A stretch of 59,242 nt of DNA. It comes from Candidatus Saccharimonadota bacterium (GTDB lineage Bacteria > Patescibacteriota > Saccharimonadia > QS-5-54-17). The notes beneath the pieces are model-generated. The model ran no database searches. It was not told the origin of the DNA and saw only the letters and a program-made list of their open reading frames with translations. A program made the translations under genes and the position numbers. The stretch spans positions 1 through 59,242 of the forward strand of contig JBJHCT010000004.1 of NCBI GenBank assembly GCA_050486185.1, given 5' to 3'. The first letter of the stretch is position 1. Every line of letters begins with the position of its first letter. Below, in pieces: positions 6,968 through 23,110 of this stretch.

Positions 6968-7760
6968 AGGAAGTGAAATCGCCGGTTATATCAAGGTTGC
7001 TCAAGCACAAACTGTGCGTAGTTTTCAGTATACCGGCAAGCAACCACAGCTAGCTATCATAAACTGTGGCGATAGAGTAGTAAGTAGTAAGTATATAGAG
7101 CTAAAACAGCAGTACGGAGAGGATATAGGGGTTGGGGTGAGTAAGTATGATGTTGAGCCTAATGATCTTATTAAGCAAATTGAAAAACTTAATAAAGATC
7201 CTGAAACTCACGGTATTATAGTCCAGCTACCACTACTAGAAGGGATAGATACAGACAAGATTCTAGATAGTATCGACCCGCAAAAGGATGTCGATGGATT
7301 GGGCGATAACTCTGTTTTTGACCCGGCTACACCCACGGCTATATTGTGGTTGTTGGCAGGATATAATATTGATTTAGAGGGTAAAGAGATAGGGGTGGTT
7401 GGACTTGGTAGATTGGTAGGTGCATCGCTAGTAAAACTTCTTGAGAGTTCAGGACACAAACCCATAGTTTGTGATGAGGATAGTGGTAACTTAGAAGAAT
7501 TGATGGAAACTTGCGATATAGTGATTACCGCTACCGGTCAACCAAAACTAATTACCAACAAACTAATTAGACCTAATCAAGTAATTATCGATGCCGGTAC
7601 TTCTAATGATAACGGTAGTTTAGTGGGTGATGTCGATCCATCTACTTATGAGAGAAATGATATTAAAATCAGCCCAGTACCTGGTGGTGTTGGGCCTCTA
7701 ACAGTTTGCGCTTTATTTGCTAATGTAGTTGAGGCTTTTAAGACTCTAACGCTTGAGTAA
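6951..7760 (+). CDS. folD: Bifunctional methylenetetrahydrofolate dehydrogenase / methenyl-THF cyclohydrolase
   Basis: 'HGIIVQLPL', 'DPQKDVDGL', 'PATPTAILWLL', 'VVGLGRLVG' and 'PVPGGVGPLTV' motifs. Start is ambiguous (ATG at 6939, 6951 or 6957) and overlaps the upstream gene. The 3' end overlaps the convergent response-regulator gene by 23 nt. Confidence 0.85.
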   Translation: MPMLLKGSEIAGYIKVAQAQTVRSFQYTGKQPQLAIINCGDRVVSSKYIELKQQYGEDIGVGVSKYDVEPNDLIKQIEKLNKDPETHGIIVQLPLLEGIDTDKILDSIDPQKDVDGLGDNSVFDPATPTAILWLLAGYNIDLEGKEIGVVGLGRLVGASLVKLLESSGHKPIVCDEDSGNLEELMETCDIVITATGQPKLITNKLIRPNQVIIDAGTSNDNGSLVGDVDPSTYERNDIKISPVPGGVGPLTVCALFANVVEAFKTLTLE

Positions 7761-8112
7761 CTCTTTCAGCTACCTGTTTAGGTGTAAGATCGGCTTTAAC
7801 TATGAATGAGTCAACACTTAAGTCTTTAAGATTAGCTGGAGCTTCAGACTCCCCCATATTGGTTAGAATAATAACTTTAATGTTTTTACCCCAATCTTCT
7901 TTGCGCATAATCTCTAACATCTCAGCGCCACCCATAATTGGCATCATCAAATCAAGTAGTACTAGGTCTGGCTGAAAGTCTTTAACAACCTCTAGTCCTT
8001 GCTGTCCATCACTGGCATAAGCCACATCAAACCCCTCGGCTTCGAATTTCATCCGATACATCTGGACGATTGCTAGATCGTCTTCTATGAGGACTATCTT
8101 TGCTTTAGCCAT
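7738..8112 (-). CDS. Receiver-only (CheY-like) response regulator
   Basis: 'IVLIEDD', 'DLVLLDLMMP' (phospho-acceptor Asp), 'VIILTN' and 'KA' blocks. About 124 aa with no output domain. Start taken at MAKAKI. Confidence 0.85.
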   Translation of the reverse strand: MAKAKIVLIEDDLAIVQMYRMKFEAEGFDVAYASDGQQGLEVVKDFQPDLVLLDLMMPIMGGAEMLEIMRKEDWGKNIKVIILTNMGESEAPANLKDLSVDSFIVKADLTPKQVAERVTQALES

Positions 8113-8143
8113 AAATACCACTTGTTTATAGTTACTATTTGCT

Positions 8144-8158
8144 ATACTGTAACAGTAT
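8144..8158. promoter_or_regulatory. Perfect 7-1-7 palindrome ATACTGT-a-ACAGTAT in the divergent intergenic region
   Basis: Read directly. Lies 32 nt upstream of the response-regulator start and 127 nt upstream of the GNAT-ThiF gene, in a very AT-rich spacer. Confidence 0.3.
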
Positions 8159-8284
8159 TAATAATAAAGCAAATAAAGCATAAAGCCAATAAAAATAAAA
8201 ATAATAAACAGTCGTACACAGCTACACGGTATTTACATATAATAAAAAATATGTTATAAATATAAATAATTTAAACCTAATCAT

Positions 8285-9940
8285 ATGGAGAAGCGTATGG
8301 TAGCCCATAAAAGCTCACTAGAGATTTCTAGCCCAGCCAGACCCAACCTATCACCTCAACTATCTGACTCTCAAGAAGTTCTAGGTTCTCTGGAAAGAGA
8401 CTTCGAATTAGAGGAGTCTAGATTTAGACTCAATATTAATCCTGATAATGAGATCATGACGAAGGCCTTTAAGCTTAGGGCCGATGTTTATGGTAAGGAA
8501 ATGGGGTTTTTGGACCCAGATAAAATCGACCAAGAAGAAGGTATTGAGACGGATATATATGATAAGTATTCTACCCACATCGTAGTAGAAGATGATAGTG
8601 GTAGTGTTGTCGGTAATATGAGGCTTATACATGAAAGCGAAGTTGACGTTCTGCCTGTTGGGCACTTCTTTAATATATTTGTTCCCGAAGGGTCAGTTGA
8701 GGCTTCTAGATACATATCTAGAACTAAGGATCCCAAGGATCAAAGAGCGATATCTATTGCTTTAATTAGAGCCGGCACAGAACAGGCTATAGATGCAGAT
8801 GCACCTTACATATATATGACCATAGAAAGGGATCTTTACGAGATGTTTATAAATATGGGCATACCGTTAGAAGTTGTAGATGACCCTAAATTTATAAAAG
8901 AGTACAATACTACTAATATGGCTTGCAGAGTCAACCCTAGACGTGTTGCAGCTGGAATATTAGAGGCTGACACATTACTGAAACCAAGTCGTAAAGGAAC
9001 TCTAAGGACTAGAAGGACTAAACTTTCCCCATTTTTCTACAACTCTAGCTTGAGTGATATAGCTAGCGGGTTTAGTAAGTCTGATTTAGAGGCGAGAATG
9101 AGACCGTTTGAGCGCAATCTAGGTTTTCTTTCTAAAGAGGATCAAGAAAAAATAATGAGCTCTAGAGTTTCTATAGCTGGTACTGGTGGTGATGGTGGTA
9201 TGCTTGCTTTGCAACTTGCTAGGTTGGGTGTTGGTAGTTTTAAGCTAGCAGACCCAGAAGTATTTGAATTAGAGAATTTAAATCGCCAAGCAGCATCTAC
9301 ATATAAGACTATAGGCAGAAATAAAGCTGAAGTTATAGCAGAATCTATTTTAGATATTAACCCCTCTGCCAATATCGAGGTTTTCACCGATGGGGTTCAG
9401 ACTGGGAATGTGGAAGAGTTTGTTAGAGGTAGCGACTTAGTAATAGATGAAACAGAGTTTACAGTCCCAGGCATAGGTGTGATGATAGCTAGAGAATCTA
9501 GAAAACAAGGAAGACCAGTCTTGATGGCTCTTAACGTTGGTTATGGTTGTTATGTAACCTCATTTGATCCAGAGGGGTATACTTTTGAAGATATGATGGG
9601 TATAGATAAAAATGCTCCGTTATCAGAAGTAGCAGACCAAGAGATACCTATTGAACGCTGGGTTGGCCATATACCGAGCTATACCGACTTGAGAGTATTA
9701 GAAAAAGTGTCTAATGGCGAAATGACTGCACCATCTGTAGCTCCTGGAGTCGCTATGGCGGCTGGGGTTGCTTCTACTCAGGCTATTTGGCGCATACTTG
9801 GGTATAAAGGTCGCTTTGCTGATGCGACAGCACCAAACTGCCTGTCGTTCGATGCTGTAGACGGTTTTAAGCTAGTTAAAGACACACCAGAAGGATTCAG
9901 ACAATCAATTGGTAGGCTAGCTTTTAATAACTCTCAGTAG
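8285..9940 (+). CDS. Fusion protein: N-terminal autoinducer-synthase/FeeM-like GNAT acyltransferase domain plus C-terminal ThiF/E1-like adenylyltransferase domain
   Basis: The N-terminal 'FKLRADVYGKEMGFLDPDK..EEGIETDIYDKYSTHIVVEDDSGSVVGNMRLI' fits the LuxI / N-acyl-amino-acid-synthase pattern (R..VF..e.gw...g.E.D.yD...H.l..d..g.vvG..Rl). The C-terminal 'IAGTGGDGGMLALQLARLGVGSFKLADPEVFELENLNRQ' is the ThiF/MoeB/E1 nucleotide-binding signature. Confidence 0.6.
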   Translation: MEKRMVAHKSSLEISSPARPNLSPQLSDSQEVLGSLERDFELEESRFRLNINPDNEIMTKAFKLRADVYGKEMGFLDPDKIDQEEGIETDIYDKYSTHIVVEDDSGSVVGNMRLIHESEVDVLPVGHFFNIFVPEGSVEASRYISRTKDPKDQRAISIALIRAGTEQAIDADAPYIYMTIERDLYEMFINMGIPLEVVDDPKFIKEYNTTNMACRVNPRRVAAGILEADTLLKPSRKGTLRTRRTKLSPFFYNSSLSDIASGFSKSDLEARMRPFERNLGFLSKEDQEKIMSSRVSIAGTGGDGGMLALQLARLGVGSFKLADPEVFELENLNRQAASTYKTIGRNKAEVIAESILDINPSANIEVFTDGVQTGNVEEFVRGSDLVIDETEFTVPGIGVMIARESRKQGRPVLMALNVGYGCYVTSFDPEGYTFEDMMGIDKNAPLSEVADQEIPIERWVGHIPSYTDLRVLEKVSNGEMTAPSVAPGVAMAAGVASTQAIWRILGYKGRFADATAPNCLSFDAVDGFKLVKDTPEGFRQSIGRLAFNNSQ

Positions 9941-9951
9941 GTATTCAGTAA

Positions 9952-9980
9952 TTAGCTAGTTAGCTAGTTAGCTAGTTAGC
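9952..9980. repeat. Octanucleotide tandem repeat (TTAGCTAG) x3.6
   Basis: ttagctag ttagctag ttagctag ttagc read directly, 12 nt after the stop of the GNAT-ThiF gene and 33 nt before the kinase start. Confidence 0.85.
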
Positions 9981-10012
9981 ACAATAGACTACTTGCATAT
10001 ATAATAATTGTT

Positions 10013-12145
10013 ATGGATTTGCACTTAGGGACTAGTATTCTGCTGTCCTCAATACTATTTTCTATAGGTTTTATAGTTTTAGCCAAGAATTACCGAAATA
10101 AGCTAAATGTTTATTTTTTCGGTTTTTCAACGCTTTTGTCTCTATGGGTTTTGTCTAATTATTATAGTAATGACTTTACCTTATCTCATGAACTAGCTCT
10201 ACTGTCTAACCACTTAGTTCTATTTTTTTCAGCTGCTTCACTAGTTTTTTTGATGAGGTTTACAGCTATTATTGCCTCTCATAATATTAGATATTTAAAT
10301 ACTCTAACGTCCATAGTTATTATCGGCTCTATATTAGGATTAACACCATTGGTTATTGTAGATATATACGAACAGCAAGGTGTTTACGCTATAGAGTTTG
10401 GATTACTTGCATCAATGTATTTTGCCAGCATCTTTACTAGCATACTAGTCTCTTTATGGCAGCTTATAATCGGTTATATTAAAAATGAAGGCATTGTGAG
10501 GGCGAGGATAGTTATTGTCTTGTTGAGCCTAGCTATAATGACAATACTATCTGTTATAACCAATGCCCTGATACCCATATTGACTGGCTCTTTTGCTCTT
10601 ACAAACCTTGGCCCATTTGCAACTATATTTCTAGCACTGGGGATGGCTTATGTAATCGTTAAGCACCGATTGTTTGATATACGTCTAGTTATTGCTAGGT
10701 CTATCGCTTACGTGCTAGTCATAGCAACTCTTGGTTTAACCTACGGACTAATAGTCTTCAATATAGTCGATAGATTCTTCCCCGGCACTCAAACCACTAC
10801 CTTGCAACAAGCCATCTACACTCTACTTGCAGTATTTCTAGCTTTTACTTTCCAGCCCATCAAACGCTTCTTTGATAAACTAACTAACCGAATATTTTAC
10901 CGAGACCGATATGATACCGAAGAGGTACTAAACTCTTTAGGCAAGATATTTGTCAGTAAAAGTAATAGTTTTGAGCTACTAGATGAGAGCCTTCAGGTTA
11001 TCAAAGATACTCTCAAAGTCGAGTTCGGTAGACTGGTAGTTTTGGGTAAAGATGGGATATATAAATCTACCCATATTGGTTCCCATGAAGATATAGAGGT
11101 GAATACCGACAGCCTTAATCGCTTTACTGAGCAGATCAGTATTTTGGATGAAATTGAAAACGACAACGACAACATTAAAGGCGCACTAAAAGATATGAGA
11201 GCTTATGCTCTAGTTAGACTATCGACCCAAGATGGATTAATCGGCTACATGATTTTAGGTTCTAAATCTTCTGGTACTATCTACACCCAGCAAGACATCA
11301 ATATGTTAGAGATACTGTCTCAGGAACTAGCTGTAGCTATCCAAAACGCCAAGAGCTACGAGGAGATACAGGCCTTCTCAGAAACTTTGAAGCAAGAAGT
11401 AGAAGATGCTACTGCTAAGTTGCGTGAGACCAACGAGAGGTTAATTAAACTAGATGAGGCCAAGGATGAGTTTATCTCTATGGCTTCACACCAGCTACGC
11501 ACACCACTTACAACCGTTAAGGGATATTTATCTATGCTACTAGAGGGTGATGCCGGAAAACTATCGAAAAAACAACACGAATTTGTCGACCTATCCTTTG
11601 TCAGCTCTAAACGGATGGTGCACTTAATTGCCGATATGCTTAACGTTTCAAGAATTAGCACTGGTAAACTAATGATCGATAAGACTGAGGTTGATATGTT
11701 GGAATTAGTTCAAGAAGAAGTCGATCAGTTGAAGCGCCAGGCCGAAGCTAGGAATGTGAAATTAATCTTGCATAAACCAAAGAGTAAACTACCTAAACTT
11801 AGCCTAGATGAGACCAAGATCCGTCAGGTAGTTATGAACTTTACCGATAATGCGATCTATTACTCTCCGGAGGGCAAAGTAGATATCTATCTAGAAAATA
11901 AAGACGATTCAGTAGAATTTAGGGTAGTTGATAATGGTATAGGTGTATCTAAAGAGGCCCAAAAAGAGCTATTTAAAAAGTTCTTTAGAGCTGAAAATGC
12001 TAAAACTGTCAGACCAGATGGTACAGGCCTAGGACTCTACATGGCCAAGCAGGTGATAGAGCTACAAGGTGGTGAAATAATCTTTGAAAGCCAGGAAGGC
12101 AAAGGCTCGACATTTGGTTTTCGTTTTAATACCAACGACAACTAG
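10013..12145 (+). CDS. Sensor histidine kinase with polytopic (about 6-7 TM) N-terminal sensor region
   Basis: Multiple hydrophobic helices in the first ~290 aa. H-box 'SHQLRTPLTTVKGY', N-box 'NFTDNAIYYSP', G1 'VVDNGIGV', G2 'GTGLGLYMAK'. Confidence 0.9.
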   Translation: MDLHLGTSILLSSILFSIGFIVLAKNYRNKLNVYFFGFSTLLSLWVLSNYYSNDFTLSHELALLSNHLVLFFSAASLVFLMRFTAIIASHNIRYLNTLTSIVIIGSILGLTPLVIVDIYEQQGVYAIEFGLLASMYFASIFTSILVSLWQLIIGYIKNEGIVRARIVIVLLSLAIMTILSVITNALIPILTGSFALTNLGPFATIFLALGMAYVIVKHRLFDIRLVIARSIAYVLVIATLGLTYGLIVFNIVDRFFPGTQTTTLQQAIYTLLAVFLAFTFQPIKRFFDKLTNRIFYRDRYDTEEVLNSLGKIFVSKSNSFELLDESLQVIKDTLKVEFGRLVVLGKDGIYKSTHIGSHEDIEVNTDSLNRFTEQISILDEIENDNDNIKGALKDMRAYALVRLSTQDGLIGYMILGSKSSGTIYTQQDINMLEILSQELAVAIQNAKSYEEIQAFSETLKQEVEDATAKLRETNERLIKLDEAKDEFISMASHQLRTPLTTVKGYLSMLLEGDAGKLSKKQHEFVDLSFVSSKRMVHLIADMLNVSRISTGKLMIDKTEVDMLELVQEEVDQLKRQAEARNVKLILHKPKSKLPKLSLDETKIRQVVMNFTDNAIYYSPEGKVDIYLENKDDSVEFRVVDNGIGVSKEAQKELFKKFFRAENAKTVRPDGTGLGLYMAKQVIELQGGEIIFESQEGKGSTFGFRFNTNDN

Positions 12146-12172: not shown

Positions 12173-12349
12173 TTAGAATATTAGCCACAAAATCAAAAAG
12201 ATAATCAAGCTTAAAATAGTTAGAGCAATAAGCCTAATTTTGAACTTCTTTTTTGCAGCCTTTTTTTCCTCTACTTCAGCATCGTAACGGTGTATTTTAA
12301 CAGATTGATTAGACTGACCCTTATACTTCTTATTACGCTTTTTTGCCAT
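12173..12349 (-). CDS. Small basic, C-terminally membrane-anchored hypothetical protein (58 aa)
   Basis: Hand-translated; below the track cutoff. MAKKRNKKYKGQSNQSVKIHRYDAEVEEKKAAKKKFKIRLIALTILSLIIFLILWLIF. Convergent with the kinase gene and fills an otherwise empty interval. Confidence 0.4.
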   Translation of the reverse strand: MAKKRNKKYKGQSNQSVKIHRYDAEVEEKKAAKKKFKIRLIALTILSLIIFLILWLIF

Positions 12350-15351: not shown

Positions 15352-16107
15352 ATGCCCGACCAAGTACAACTAAGAGGTGGTACAGCAAGTGATAATGACA
15401 ACTTCACTGGAGCAGCCAGAGAAGTTACAGTAGATACTACTAATAAGACTCTTAGAGTACATGATGGAGTAACAGCAGGAGGATCTAAACTAGCAGCTTA
15501 TGATCAGTGGGGTAGATTACAAGTAGAAGACCCAGAGAATGATAGTGACGTAGCTAATAAGCAGTGGGTGGAAGGGCATGTTAGCGATTCAGCCAACACT
15601 CAGTGTATTGATGAGGTGCGTTTGGATACATCAGGCTCGTTCGACTTTACGGATATTCCAGCAACCTATAGACACCTTGTAATTAAGTTGGCGGGTCGTA
15701 GTTCAGATAGCGCTACTAACGTTGTAGATGTTAACGTGCGCTTTAATAATGACACTGGAGCAAATTACGATAGGCAAATGCTACGTGGGTTCGGTGCTAA
15801 TGCTACCGCAAGCGAATCGCTAGCACAGACATTCATGCCTTTTACGTGGGCGCTGCCAGGAGCCAATGCGCCTGCTGATGTAGCTGGTAGTGGTATTTTG
15901 CACATTCCCGATTATGCCGATACTACCTTTCATAAGACACTAGTGGCGTCCTTTGTTGGTAAAACTGCAAGCCACGCCACGCTCATACATGAATACGGAG
16001 GCTACTGGAGGTCTACAGCTGCTATTAACCGCATAACTATCACTACTCATGCGGGAACTTTTGCGGCGGGTAGTATTGCTACGTTATATGGTATGAAGGG
16101 AATTTAG
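15352..16107 (+). CDS. Phage tail-fibre-like protein (Mtd/hyaluronidase-type N-terminal fibre motif), paralog 1
   Basis: 'VQLRGGTASDNDNFTGAAREVTVDTTNKTLRVHDGVTAGG' fits the (I/V)QL(R/K)(R/G)GT..n...GE..vdTdt..lk.GDG.T motif at the N-terminus of many tail fibres. 'DVANKQWVEG' matches the fibre 'DA.NK.yVd' motif. Homologous along its length to 56238-57062. Confidence 0.6.
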   Translation: MPDQVQLRGGTASDNDNFTGAAREVTVDTTNKTLRVHDGVTAGGSKLAAYDQWGRLQVEDPENDSDVANKQWVEGHVSDSANTQCIDEVRLDTSGSFDFTDIPATYRHLVIKLAGRSSDSATNVVDVNVRFNNDTGANYDRQMLRGFGANATASESLAQTFMPFTWALPGANAPADVAGSGILHIPDYADTTFHKTLVASFVGKTASHATLIHEYGGYWRSTAAINRITITTHAGTFAAGSIATLYGMKGI

Positions 16108-19820: not shown

Positions 19821-21041
19821 ATGAAGATTATATTAAGGCAATATTACAACCAGGCGATAGAAATGTATCGCTCGGCTAGCCTAGAAGAAAAGATAGCAAC
19901 TAGTGTTTTTGGCATCCTACTATTGGTTACTGCTGGATTAATGCCGGCAGCCAGAATAGATGCTGGAGATAGTGCACTAGTTAATATCTATGTAGATGGG
20001 GAGAGGCGATCCATAACTACTTCTGCTGATACAGTAGCGGAAGTACTAGATCGAGCTGATATTGTATTGGGTGAAAAAGACCTAGTTGAGCCGTCGCTTG
20101 ACGCTGAAATCACTAACCAGGTGTTTAATATCAACGTGTATAGAGCCTATCCTGTTACCATAATTGATGGTGATGATACCTATCAGGTCATGAGCGCCTA
20201 TGATAGTGCTAGATTGATAGTCAAGAATTCTGGAGTAGTGGATATACATGATGAGGATAAGGCCTATTTAGATTTAGTAGTAGATTTCCTTAGAGAAGGC
20301 TTTGTCGGCCGTAAAGTTATGATAGAGCGAGCTAGCCTTGTGAAATTTAAGTCTGGGGATGAACAGGTTGCACTCAGAACCCATGCTGAGACTGTAGCAG
20401 AAATGCTTGAAGAGTTAAGTATAGATGTAAGCAATAACGATATTGTTGAACCATCGCTTGATACTGCTATAGAAAGCGGTATGGTTGTCTCAATGACAAA
20501 GGTGGGGTTTGAAGTAGTAACAGTTAATGAAGAGGTTCAGCCAGGGTTTAGAGTTATATACGATAATGATAGACCTATAGGCTATAATGGTGTGGAAACA
20601 GAGGGAACCCCTGGCATAATTGGGATTACTTATGAAGTTGAGTATCGTAACGGAGAAGAGGTTGCCCGCCGAGAGATAAACAGATCGACAGAGTCTGAGC
20701 CTCAACCTAAGATATACATAGTTGGCAACAAACAGGGAACTTACACTAATGCTCAGGCAGAGTGGCTGTACTTGTTGAGATTTTGCGAAAGTACCAATAA
20801 CTATAGTATCAATACCGGTAACGGCTTTTATGGGGCCTACCAGTTCATGATCCCTACATGGAACAGTATAGCCTCAATCACTGGTCGAACAGACCTAATA
20901 GGAGTTAGACCAGACCTTGCTAGTCCAGTAGACCAAGACTATATGATTATCCAAAATACTAAGATTAGCACTGGAGGACTAGCAAGACAGAACCCAGGTT
21001 GTTATCAGACACACAATCTTTCTCAGTTTCCTCCCGAATAG
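19821..21041 (+). CDS. RpfB-like cell-wall protein: DUF348 repeats plus G5 domain plus Rpf-type transglycosylase domain
   Basis: N-terminal TM/signal anchor. Repeated 'VDGE..tv...a.TVaevL....i.l...D.veP.ld..i' DUF348-type units. G5-like 'GTPGIIGITYEVEYRNGEEV'. C-terminal 'EWLYLLRFCESTNNYSINTGNGFYGAYQFMIPTWNSI' matches the resuscitation-promoting-factor domain. Confidence 0.8.
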   Translation: MKIILRQYYNQAIEMYRSASLEEKIATSVFGILLLVTAGLMPAARIDAGDSALVNIYVDGERRSITTSADTVAEVLDRADIVLGEKDLVEPSLDAEITNQVFNINVYRAYPVTIIDGDDTYQVMSAYDSARLIVKNSGVVDIHDEDKAYLDLVVDFLREGFVGRKVMIERASLVKFKSGDEQVALRTHAETVAEMLEELSIDVSNNDIVEPSLDTAIESGMVVSMTKVGFEVVTVNEEVQPGFRVIYDNDRPIGYNGVETEGTPGIIGITYEVEYRNGEEVARREINRSTESEPQPKIYIVGNKQGTYTNAQAEWLYLLRFCESTNNYSINTGNGFYGAYQFMIPTWNSIASITGRTDLIGVRPDLASPVDQDYMIIQNTKISTGGLARQNPGCYQTHNLSQFPPE

Positions 21042-22318: not shown

Positions 22319-23110
22319 ATGGACAATGGAGTTGTTATCAGGCTAGCTACTACCGATGATATTACCGGTATCGTTTATGTACATGCCACTACTTGGATAG
22401 CTCACTACCCCAATGAAGAGCTAGGTATTACAGAAGCAGATATTAAAGATATTGACTGGCATAACAAGCAAGCTATGTTGAAACACTCCATACTCAGTAG
22501 TGACTACCAGGTTTGGGTAGCTGTGTCTGGTGTAGAGATTCTAGGCTTTACCTCAATCGCTAATATGCCTGGTAAGATGATTTTAGAAAATCTATTCGTA
22601 CTACCAGAGCATCAGGGCCTAGGTTTGGGCACGCAACTACTACAAACAGCAATCAAAGATCATGACAGGGTTTATCTGCATGTAGCTAAGTATTTAGATG
22701 ACTCTATCGGCTTTTATAATCACCATGGCTTTAAAACTACTGGAGTTCGTGGCGAGTACAAACTACCAGGAGGTAAATGTATACCGACTATAGAGATGGT
22801 GCGCAGTAATACATCTGATGAACCCATATCTAGCACTCAAAGTACCTTGAAGAACAGTGATAGCAATAACAAGAAAGATAGCAGCAACCAAGAAGATCTA
22901 ATCAGTCGTAAGCAGTTGGCAAAAGTTAGCGGAGTTAGGGATAGCACTATCAAGTGGTATAGCGAAATAGGTTTACTTGATTTTACCCAGTCTGAAACTA
23001 AGCGTAGACGCTATTTCCCGCAAAAAACTTCCCTAGCTAGATTAGAGGAAATAACCGATTTGAGATCAAAAGGTTATAGCCTAAACGATATTAAATCTTT
23101 AATAAGGTAA
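22319..23110 (+). CDS. GNAT N-acetyltransferase with a C-terminal MerR-like helix-turn-helix extension
   Basis: GNAT motif A 'VLPEHQGLGLGTQLL'. A Ser/Asn/Lys-rich linker follows, then 'ISRKQLAKVSGVRDSTIKWYSEIGLLDF', which resembles the MerR-type HTH. Confidence 0.6.
   Translation: MDNGVVIRLATTDDITGIVYVHATTWIAHYPNEELGITEADIKDIDWHNKQAMLKHSILSSDYQVWVAVSGVEILGFTSIANMPGKMILENLFVLPEHQGLGLGTQLLQTAIKDHDRVYLHVAKYLDDSIGFYNHHGFKTTGVRGEYKLPGGKCIPTIEMVRSNTSDEPISSTQSTLKNSDSNNKKDSSNQEDLISRKQLAKVSGVRDSTIKWYSEIGLLDFTQSETKRRRYFPQKTSLARLEEITDLRSKGYSLNDIKSLIR

Follow-up and report, generated by a model that had tools for sequence, protein, structure and literature searches.

Positions 8285 to 9940 of contig JBJHCT010000004.1 (assembly GCA_050486185.1), a stretch of 59,242 nucleotides from a mine-tailings metagenome assigned to a Candidatus Saccharimonadota bacterium and hereafter called the window, encode a single polypeptide in which a LuxI/FeeM-fold N-acyl amino acid synthase (NAS) domain precedes a ThiF/E1-like adenylating domain. 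We favour, with moderate confidence, the reading that this protein is a bifunctional enzyme of the oxazolone-synthetase type and that its product is sensed by the histidine kinase encoded beside it; we are surer of the enzymology than of the signalling role. The NAS and ThiF domains form an obligate functional pair, for which the fusion is a Rosetta-stone signal, and in Saccharibacteria the pair is flanked by a conserved two-component system. This flanking system is the most interesting feature of the locus and was absent from the preliminary description, a note made from the DNA sequence alone.

Domain organisation and predicted fold

The fusion gene and its parts are as follows (aa, amino acids; pLDDT, predicted local distance difference test).

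8285..9940, + strand: NAS-ThiF fusion gene, a single open reading frame (ORF) with ATG start, 551 aa plus stop
8285..8407, + strand: disordered N-terminal tail, aa 1-41 (pLDDT < 50, AlphaFold2)
8417..9046, + strand: LuxI/FeeM-fold N-acyltransferase (NAS) domain, aa ~45-254 (Pfam, NCBIfam, conservation, fold)
9092..9937, + strand: ThiF/E1-like adenylating (putative cyclase) domain, aa ~270-551 (Pfam, NCBIfam, conservation, fold)

The ThiF profile (PF00899) covers aa 276-525 with E=8.6e-35, and two Pfam families match the N-terminal half above their gathering scores, namely Autoind_synth (PF00765; aa 58-208, 31.7 bits against 24) and Acetyltransf_5 (PF13444; aa 64-121, 32.2 bits against 22.4). 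FeeM (PF21926) was found with 21.1 bits, under its gathering score of 27. Among the NCBIfam models, the best match of the N-terminal half is the PEP-CTERM-associated NAS family TIGR03694 (51.8 bits, E=7e-14), with an N-acyl homoserine lactone (AHL) synthase model at 23 bits; the window protein scores below the curated cut-offs of both TIGR03694 and FeeM. A NAS-domain hidden Markov model (HMM) built in this analysis recognises the domain with E=1e-64. The C-terminal half is best matched by PRK08223 (197.8 bits), followed by PRK14851 and PRK14852, all of them 'hypothetical protein' models; ThiF/MoeB models reached at most 85 bits, and TcdA models also fell far below PRK08223. The database copy of the protein (P0001) has 547 aa and begins at Met5.

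A full-length AlphaFold2 model made from 78 relatives has a pLDDT of 90.7 and a predicted template modelling score (pTM) of 0.87, with a well-ordered inter-domain linker and disorder limited to aa 1-41. Foldseek searches of the PDB with the N-domain ranked LasI, TofI, BjaI, RpaI, MesI and EsaI, together with FeeM, above all other GNATs. The full-length model, matching through its C-terminal half, retrieved AclA (9egb) first and then ThiF, PaaA, MoeB, Uba4, UBA5 and MccB. The preliminary description had placed the domains at residues ~60-230 and ~290-551, which Pfam and AlphaFold2 bear out to within ~20 residues, and the peptide strings that it quoted occur in the window translation. Its assignment of an autoinducer-synthase/NAS-type N-terminus is upheld by the profile search (Autoind_synth and Acetyltransf_5), that of a ThiF/E1-like C-terminus by PF00899 and by the fold matches to ThiF, MoeB, PaaA and MccB, and structure prediction agrees with both; the two-domain model is confident, and the conserved catalytic motifs are intact in each domain.

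AclA of Tenacibaculum discolor (PDB 9egb, 9egc and 9egd), a ThiF-like entry of 2025 described as 'in complex with substrate', is the top solved-structure match of the ThiF domain both by fold and by sequence (E ~5e-15). A literature search on AclA function returned no useful paper; the structures may be informative for small-molecule ThiF enzymes.

Conserved catalytic residues

The residues of the ThiF domain that are invariant in a 78-sequence alignment are R277, which sits in an arginine-finger motif F-E-R-N, A298-G299-x-G301-G302-x-G304, D323, N331-x-N333-R334, K347 and D388-E389. In the HMMER alignment to Uba1 and the AclA chain they fall on the Y-S-R-Q arginine finger, the glycine-rich loop and the D...NLNRQ...K motifs, and the Rossmann-type adenylation site of E1-like enzymes (Arg finger, GxGxxG, D, NxxRQ, K, D) is complete in the window protein. 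The residues conserved across the family in the NAS domain are L64-R65, Y69, E88-x-D90-x-x-D93, H98, G110, R113, L123-P124 and E139-x-S141-R142, a pattern common to LuxI-type synthases and N-acyl amino acid synthases. The LuxI set (R24, F28, W34, D45, D48, R68/70, E101 and R104) has as its counterpart R65, Y69, F75, E88/D90/D93, R113, E139 and R142, with Trp replaced by Phe; it cannot discriminate between AHL synthases and NAS, since both have the same residues. By their motifs, the two active sites appear intact.

In the 78-sequence alignment no Cys of the ThiF domain reaches 90% conservation, and a CxxC zinc motif is absent from the window protein; sulfur-relay or thioester chemistry by this domain is therefore unlikely. 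These absences bear on the idea that the enzyme resembles E1, MccB or PaaA in function: it would activate a peptide or small protein at its C-terminus by adenylation, and the GNAT domain would then acylate that molecule. Fold and sequence do resemble ThiF, MoeB, MccB, PaaA and the E1 enzymes, and a small conserved ORF adjoins the gene set (see below). That ORF, however, lies on the opposite strand, ends in a transmembrane (TM) helix and has no conserved C-terminal residue. Moreover, no ThiS/MoaD/ubiquitin-like or precursor-peptide gene was called in the conserved neighbourhood, and no peptide-clamp domain of the MccB/PaaA type was detected, the ThiF domain starting right after the NAS domain. 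With partner gene, clamp domain and conserved Cys all lacking, we rejected this protein- or peptide-activating scheme as extremely unlikely. The supposition that the activated carboxylate is that of a peptide or protein C-terminus also finds no support by comparison, as the ThiF-like enzyme of the OxzAB, TyzACB and TrzAS pathways (below) does not adenylate one. The related proposal, that the two domains cooperate on a product, holds for one of the acyl-amino-acid type, and only its peptide-conjugate version falls, on the same three grounds.

Distribution and pairing of the two domains

A locus scan with one genome per GTDB species returned 80 loci, and 88 loci were analysed altogether. The scanned loci belong mostly to Saccharibacteria, with ~19 Leucobacter genomes, Cryobacterium and another member of the Microbacteriaceae, a few Acidimicrobiia, one Uhrbacteria and one Bdellovibrionales. 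Fused and split forms were told apart by where the NAS-domain HMM and the ThiF domain mapped on reading frames taken from stop to stop. In 86 of the 88 loci the NAS is fused to the ThiF domain or encoded by the gene just before it; the two exceptions are a locus cut by a contig edge and the Bdellovibrionales locus, which has an upstream seven-transmembrane (7TM) kinase. True fusions account for 13 Saccharibacteria loci and one Acidimicrobiales locus. The remaining 72 paired loci have two genes, the stop and start codons of which often overlap. Such a recurrence of both domains is far beyond chance.

Several high-GC Leucobacter loci initially appeared to carry fusions; these were an artefact of longest-ORF calling, and frame-aware HMM mapping resolved them as split. 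By the same mapping, L083 is the sole truly fused actinobacterial locus.

The full-length fusion has ~70 relatives (clusters at 90% identity) of 540-570 aa; their identity to the window protein is 38-60%, and nearly all come from Saccharibacteria. Searching exhaustively by HMMER with the ThiF domain gave 199 representatives of clusters at 50% identity (E<=1e-30). For the 150 best of these, taken together with the window protein, the architectures are ThiF alone (111), NAS-ThiF (14), ThiF-NAS (1), ThiF joined to a flavin desaturase (FDO) in at least ten cases, FDO-ThiF (1) and others. In a neighbour-joining tree of ThiF domains, built without support values, the window protein lies in a Saccharibacteria clade that includes split forms too. 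Separate fusion lineages are seen in Saccharibacteria, in an Acidimicrobiales-type clade, in P0183/P0189 and, with the reverse domain order, in P0187, a pattern which indicates at least three independent origins of the fusion as far as sequence comparison can tell. The fusion is a recurrent architecture and no isolated case.

Three further fusions were noted in the ThiF clade of the window: a S-adenosylmethionine (SAM) methyltransferase-ThiF protein (P0234, 557 aa), a ThiF-glycosyltransferase of the EryCIII-like type (P0233, 746 aa) and a WbuX-type N-acetyl-sugar amidotransferase-ThiF protein (P0191, 647 aa). Their partner domains suggest a wider small-molecule chemistry in this clade.

Outside the candidate phyla radiation (CPR), the closest relatives are found in Leucobacter, a documented host genus of Saccharibacteria (TM7i with Leucobacter aridicollis, PMC9894109). 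The presence of the closest homologs there suggests, as far as a crude tree goes, either gene exchange or a shared chemistry between the epibionts and their hosts.

Relationship to characterised oxazolone synthetases

The partnership of a NAS with a ThiF-like cyclase, which the preliminary description noted as an unusual fusion, is already characterised as the core of the OxzAB, TyzACB and TrzAS pathways, where the same enzyme types occur as separate proteins. OxzA of Pseudoalteromonas rubra N-acylates tyrosine from acyl-coenzyme A (acyl-CoA), and OxzB, a ThiF-nitroreductase didomain protein, needs ATP and yields the oxazolone (bioRxiv 10.1101/2020.06.11.147165). TyzA, TyzB and TyzC of Mycobacterium tuberculosis (Rv2336, Rv2338c and Rv2337c) are, respectively, an N-acyltransferase, an ATP-dependent ThiF-homolog cyclase and an FDO desaturase that together produce an N-acyl tyrazolone; the structures nearest to TyzA, a proven NAS, are AHL synthases and FeeM (PMC10404671). 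TrzA/TrzS of mycobacteria and Rhodococcus (Rv1356c/Rv1355c) form an N-acyl tryptazolone by means of a ThiF-FDO fusion, TrzS, in which cyclisation must come first: a cyclised, non-oxidised intermediate accumulates under limiting O2 or in the R540A variant, and D217A abolishes cyclisation (PMC12856293). The same three genes occur in the N-acyl dehydrotyrosine clusters of planctomycete, Massilia and Thalassotalea origin (PMC12479983).

The window shares with these systems the NAS component, the NAS-ThiF adjacency (here as a fusion) and the ATP-site residues, whereas no FDO was found within the 59 kb. Like TyzACB, it combines a LuxI/FeeM-fold NAS with a ThiF homolog of the ~300-aa size class that has no sulfur-transfer features. 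The Tyz system differs in consisting of three proteins including the TyzC desaturase, whereas the window carries the first two enzymes on one chain, and in being flanked by cysK1, cysE and mmpL9 with no two-component system reported, whereas the window gene is flanked by a kinase and a regulator. OxzAB likewise has an N-acyltransferase gene immediately upstream of a ThiF-domain gene, the ThiF domain of OxzB works on a small molecule and not on a protein, and ThiF-FDO proteins of OxzB architecture fall in PRK08223, the best model of the window; however, OxzB joins ThiF to a nitroreductase-type oxidase, whereas the window joins it to an acyltransferase and has no oxidase. The saturated cyclised intermediate of TrzS is a direct precedent for an FDO-less product, and TrzS D217, an Asp near the ATP that is needed for cyclase activity, has a candidate counterpart in the invariant D388. 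TrzS differs as a ThiF-FDO fusion, and the window protein is only a weak match to the 'Rv1355c family' model of NCBIfam (73 bits, cut-off 476).

TcdA/CsdL, the ThiF-family t6A dehydratase, uses ATP to activate the carboxylate of an N-acylated amino acid and then closes a ring intramolecularly, its substrate being a tRNA nucleoside. Carboxylate activation and cyclisation as proposed here would be analogous; the similarity is distant (PDB 4d7a and 4rdh, E ~5e-11). FeeM, NasY and the PEP-CTERM NAS (PF21926, TIGR03694) share fold and motif set with the N-domain of the window, but they are stand-alone enzymes without a ThiF partner. None of the papers on these pathways reports a NAS-ThiF single chain or a tie to a two-component system, and a literature search aimed at the latter returned no paper; nothing in the literature searches contradicted the preliminary description on the point that no characterised protein has this exact architecture. 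The single-chain form is uncommon, though other examples exist, and work of 2020-2025 largely allows its chemistry to be predicted. Three features appear to be new: both activities lie on one polypeptide, an FDO is missing, and in a CPR lineage the synthase is consistently coupled to a two-component system.

The absence of the desaturase was examined by tblastn with three Saccharibacteria FDO domains, which detected none in the 59-kb window and, in the ~6-kb flanks of the other loci, none except in L005 and L006. These two represent a sister form. P0087 (Saccharibacteria, 636 aa) consists of a ThiF domain, ~50% identical to that of the window and among its closest relatives, followed by an Acg-family flavin mononucleotide (FMN) oxidoreductase (E=1e-36). 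Its locus contains three tandem receiver-only genes, a 261-aa NAS-like gene, P0087 itself and a gene for a 735-aa kinase. Four Saccharibacteria clusters with the canonical NAS plus ThiF-FDO form were found (P0087, P0098, P0083 and P0121; loci L005 5213-10157 and L006). Judged by predicted architecture, the P0087 locus is the same cassette in canonical OxzB/TrzS form and ties the family to oxazolone chemistry. A search with the Saccharibacteria ThiF-FDO protein gave 27 matches, none of them named TrzS, OxzB or TyzB.

Furthermore, the ThiF halves of the ThiF-FDO proteins P0184, P0193, P0222 and P0254 and of the reversed P0225 pass the PRK08223 cut-off. The five proteins match PRK14851 end to end, their other half being an Acg-family FMN oxidoreductase. 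Because such didomain proteins pass its cut-off, PRK08223 can be taken as the ThiF-cyclase clade of oxazolone synthetases. This link, the P0087 cassette and the lack of a local FDO together identify the window protein as a putative FDO-less, acyltransferase-fused variant of the oxazolone-synthetase design.

The N-domain might instead be a true LuxI-type AHL synthase that supplies an AHL quorum signal to the kinase, with the ThiF domain unrelated or accessory. Autoind_synth scores above its gathering score, the LuxI-like spacing R65/Y69/F75, E88-x-D90-x-x-D93 and E139-x-S141-R142 is present, AHL synthases are the top fold matches, and relatives carry the JGI label 'adenylyltransferase/N-acyl-L-homoserine lactone synthetase'; PMC7567580 also names two LuxI homologs of Saccharibacteria, each two genes from a kinase, as candidate AHL systems. 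Yet an AHL offers a ThiF enzyme no free carboxylate, and 86 of 88 loci have the ThiF partner; because this partner is obligate, a product with a free carboxylate is favoured. The sister ThiF-FDO form has the architecture of an oxazolone synthetase, and NAS models outscore the AHL-synthase models (51.8 against 23 bits). The fold does not discriminate, given that the proven NAS TyzA is also nearest to AHL synthases and FeeM. No LuxR-type receptor gene occurs in the neighbourhood, where a histidine kinase and a receiver protein are found instead, and the W34 equivalent is Phe. We consider an AHL synthase of this kind decidedly unlikely.

Another route would start from the same NAS and carboxylate-adenylation evidence and end in side-chain cyclisation, turning N-acyl-homoserine into an AHL without SAM, N-acyl-ornithine or -lysine into a lactam, or N-acyl-homocysteine into a thiolactone, each a stable signal. 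It would account for the lack of an FDO, if there were no oxazolone needing conjugation for stability, and a stable product would suit a diffusible signal read by a 7TM kinase. It has no precedent, though: the characterised relatives all form oxazolones from aromatic amino acids, and the sequence is silent on the amino-acid substrate. We rate side-chain closure as unlikely, yet as a rival to be taken seriously, like the non-signal role considered below, in view of the lability of saturated azlactones and of the doubts over acyl donor and amino-acid specificity.

The flanking two-component system

The window gene order is folD, receiver protein, fusion gene and kinase; this order, like every named close homolog, indicates Candidatus Saccharibacteria (Patescibacteria/CPR). 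The elements around the fusion gene are the following.

7738..8121, - strand: receiver-only (CheY-like) response regulator, 127 aa, divergent from the fusion gene (Pfam Response_reg, E=7.6e-20)
8122..8284: divergent intergenic region, AT-rich, 163 bp, with a candidate promoter-like site at 8215-8243 (TACACA-17-TATAAT)
9952..9980: kinase-side spacer repeat, ~3.6 tandem copies of TTAGCTAG, in the 72-bp fusion-to-kinase spacer
10013..12145, + strand: sensor histidine kinase, 710 aa (Pfam; hydropathy)
10013-10777, + strand: kinase membrane part, ~7-8 TM segments, aa 1-255 (hydropathy; weak HisKA_7TM match)
~10973-11347, + strand: kinase weak GAF-like region (Pfam)
11459-11665, + strand: kinase HisKA (Pfam)
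11807-12130, + strand: kinase HATPase_c (Pfam)
12173..12349, - strand: small ORF, 58 aa, convergent with the kinase gene, with basic N-terminus MAKKRNKKYKG... and one C-terminal TM helix

The response regulator is a receiver without an output domain, and the kinase, having no receiver domain, is non-hybrid. As detected by tblastn, a kinase homolog lies directly 3' of the ThiF gene in essentially all Saccharibacteria loci, scoring ~320-600 bits for complete genes and less for those truncated by a contig end; nearly all of these loci also have a receiver homolog upstream, on the other strand. The order regulator, synthase and kinase holds whether the synthase is fused or split and with or without an FDO, while the genes further out vary. 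It is kept in more than 50 divergent Saccharibacteria species, with ThiF domains 42-56% identical to that of the window by tblastn.

The small ORF has equivalents of 73-77 aa in the same position in three other loci (L001 9809-10039, L002 9840-10073 and L007 9087-9308, all on the - strand). They share with the window ORF the motif K(K)KRNK.Y.G(.DA) and a TM helix, and this ORF may be a fourth conserved member of the cassette.

Within the kinase-side spacer, the TTAGCTAG repeat places TAG at 8-base intervals and hence stops in all three frames, and a candidate promoter-like site at 9976-10005 overlaps its end, just ahead of the kinase start. The promoter/terminator scan thus gave candidate promoters before both genes, but site counts were not above shuffle expectation.

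Elsewhere, the partners of the pair change. In the Uhrbacteria metagenome-assembled genome (MAG) a kinase follows the ThiF gene. In all 22 Leucobacter and Cryobacterium loci checked (L004, L040-L076) the order is GGDEF-EAL, a 252-aa minus-strand gene without Pfam match, NAS and ThiF; the GGDEF-EAL protein has 771 aa and six predicted TM segments. This order links the NAS-ThiF pair to cyclic di-GMP signalling proteins in a host genus of Saccharibacteria, although its conservation in Leucobacter may reflect shared ancestry within the genus. In two Acidimicrobiia loci an 8TM-PAS-GGDEF-EAL protein adjoins the pair. Polytopic membrane sensors are therefore a common theme beside it, with no shared domain demonstrated.

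A Bdellovibrionales MAG (L086 4331-6831) encodes a 7TM histidine kinase of 574 aa and, directly after it, a ThiF protein of 255 aa from the window's clade; no NAS gene was detected at this locus. Its kinase N-terminus matches the HMM of the Saccharibacteria kinase sensor with 30.8 bits. An apparent occurrence of that sensor domain in actinobacterial GGDEF-EAL proteins was discarded: the 64-bit match to L077 arose from the inclusion of L077 in the seed and dropped to -1 bit once it was removed, after which the HMM still matched only the Bdellovibrionales kinase N-terminus.

LuxM/LuxN, AinS/AinR and CqsA/CqsS are quorum-sensing pairs of a synthase with a membrane kinase, in which hybrid kinases feed the LuxU/LuxO phosphorelay. 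The window resembles them in that the gene for a synthase of a putatively lipophilic signal adjoins that for a polytopic-membrane histidine kinase, as also in the CPR candidates of PMC7567580. It differs from the three quorum-sensing pairs in its non-hybrid kinase, paired with a receiver-only regulator, and in a synthase chemistry of NAS plus ThiF. Adjacency of LuxI homologs and kinases has been described across ~10 CPR phyla, with 18 CPR LuxI homologs beside sensory kinases proposed as candidate AHL systems (Bernard et al. 2020, PMC7567580). In Table S4 of that study, two genomes of Saccharibacteria have the LuxI homolog as gene n and a kinase as gene n+2, and the term 'ThiF' does not occur in the main text; the positions match our split arrangement and suggest that gene n+1 encodes a ThiF cyclase in both.

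The same chemistry could also serve a product that is not a signal, such as a membrane or surface lipid, an antimicrobial or a host-directed acylating agent, with the two-component system merely sharing the locus or tracking the state of the envelope. Tyrazolones and tryptazolones have a mostly cellular location, N-acyl amino acids can be antibiotics or membrane lipids, saturated azlactones are reactive, and Leucobacter has no adjacent kinase. Against this stand the order of regulator, synthase and 7TM kinase, which more than 50 divergent species of Saccharibacteria retain even as the genes around it differ, and the polytopic-membrane sensor proteins that flank the pair in three other lineages. 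We assign a non-signal role a low probability.

Proposed mechanism

By analogy with the characterised pathways, the N-domain of the bifunctional oxazolone-synthetase-type enzyme that we favour would transfer an acyl group from an acyl-thioester, most likely acyl-CoA, to the alpha-amine of a free amino acid and so form an N-acyl amino acid. The ThiF-like domain would then use ATP/Mg2+ to adenylate the carboxylate of this intermediate, and the amide oxygen would displace AMP to give a 5(4H)-oxazolone (azlactone), a reaction for which TyzB, OxzB and TrzS are the precedents. Fusion of the domains would fix a 1:1 stoichiometry and may channel the intermediate. As no FDO is fused, adjacent or encoded within the 59-kb window, the end product is predicted to be saturated: an electrophilic acyl-oxazolone or its nucleophile adduct, not a conjugated compound of the tyrazolone/tryptazolone type.

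The basis of the third step is conserved gene order only. Either the lipophilic product or the N-acyl amino acid that precedes it would be the ligand of the 7TM histidine kinase and is probably the signal for it; the kinase would phosphorylate the adjacent receiver-only regulator, in a synthase-sensor circuit like that of LuxM/LuxN or CqsA/CqsS. Because the regulator consists of a receiver only, the output of the kinase is probably through protein-protein interaction and not direct control of transcription.

The first two steps could in principle run in reverse, with adenylation of an amino acid or free fatty acid by the ThiF domain and use of the acyl-adenylate as donor by the GNAT domain to form an N-acyl amide, which would serve an organism without acyl-CoA or acyl-carrier-protein pools. 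Saccharibacteria have a reduced lipid and CoA metabolism, a fusion would favour the hand-over of a labile adenylate, and the rigid, confident two-domain model (pTM 0.87) allows channelling either way. However, no ThiF-family enzyme is known to activate fatty acids, the acyltransferase of OxzAB, TyzACB and TrzAS acts first and from acyl-CoA, and the same gene pair is present in Leucobacter, which should have ordinary acyl-CoA pools. The reversed order strikes us as very unlikely.

Several points weigh against acylation followed by oxazolone formation and sensing by the kinase. To our knowledge, Saccharibacteria lack fatty-acid synthesis, which makes the acyl donor a problem. The ThiF domain stays, with its 197.8 bits, short of the curated PRK08223 cut-off of 266, and because of this score it is to be placed on a divergent branch relative to that family; the comparison with TyzB, OxzB and TrzS was made through family models and architecture. 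Activity and both substrates, amino acid and acyl group, are predictions from homology, and the sequence does not reveal the amino-acid specificity. An FDO belongs to every oxazolone pathway characterised so far, but not to the window; the genome might encode one beyond the 59 kb. Saturated azlactones are readily hydrolysed and alcoholysed (PMC12856293), which is awkward for a diffusible signal. Finally, the adjacency of the kinase is correlative, so that it could sense something else, and its output is not evident from a regulator without DNA-binding domain.

Other genes of the window

Three further genes in the window, all on the + strand, deserve mention. One (15352-16107) encodes a 251-aa protein with an N-terminal major tropism determinant domain (Mtd_N, E=1.4e-12), typical of the targets of diversity-generating retroelements. 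A second (22319-23110) encodes a 263-aa protein with a GNAT acetyltransferase domain and a C-terminal helix-turn-helix of the MerR type. The third (19821-21041) encodes an RpfB-like protein with DUF348 repeats, G5 and a transglycosylase-like domain, an architecture best known from Actinobacteria, the usual hosts of Saccharibacteria.

Implications for Saccharibacteria

We put forward, as a tentative proposal less probable than the enzymology behind it, that regulator, NAS-ThiF synthase and 7TM kinase form a self-contained and so far unrecognised communication system of Saccharibacteria. In it, an ATP-cyclised N-acyl amino acid would act as the signal, whether a saturated azlactone, a side-chain lactone or lactam, or possibly an AHL made without SAM. 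Given the relatives of the synthase in Leucobacter, the kinase might also read molecules made by the host and so mediate cross-talk between epibiont and host.

The biological role of bacterial acyl-oxazolones and of many N-acyl amino acids is called unknown in the M. tuberculosis papers; if the proposal is true, it would give oxazolone-type lipids their first assigned biological role. An FDO-less single-chain enzyme would, in addition, be a compact azlactone biocatalyst and a simple model of the small-molecule enzymes of the ThiF family. The earlier AHL prediction for two Saccharibacteria LuxI homologs (PMC7567580) is revised, as the intervening putative ThiF cyclase changes the predicted chemistry. 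With the synthase pair hard-wired to a dedicated kinase and receiver in dozens of Saccharibacteria species, a candidate receptor is defined and the question of the signal becomes testable.

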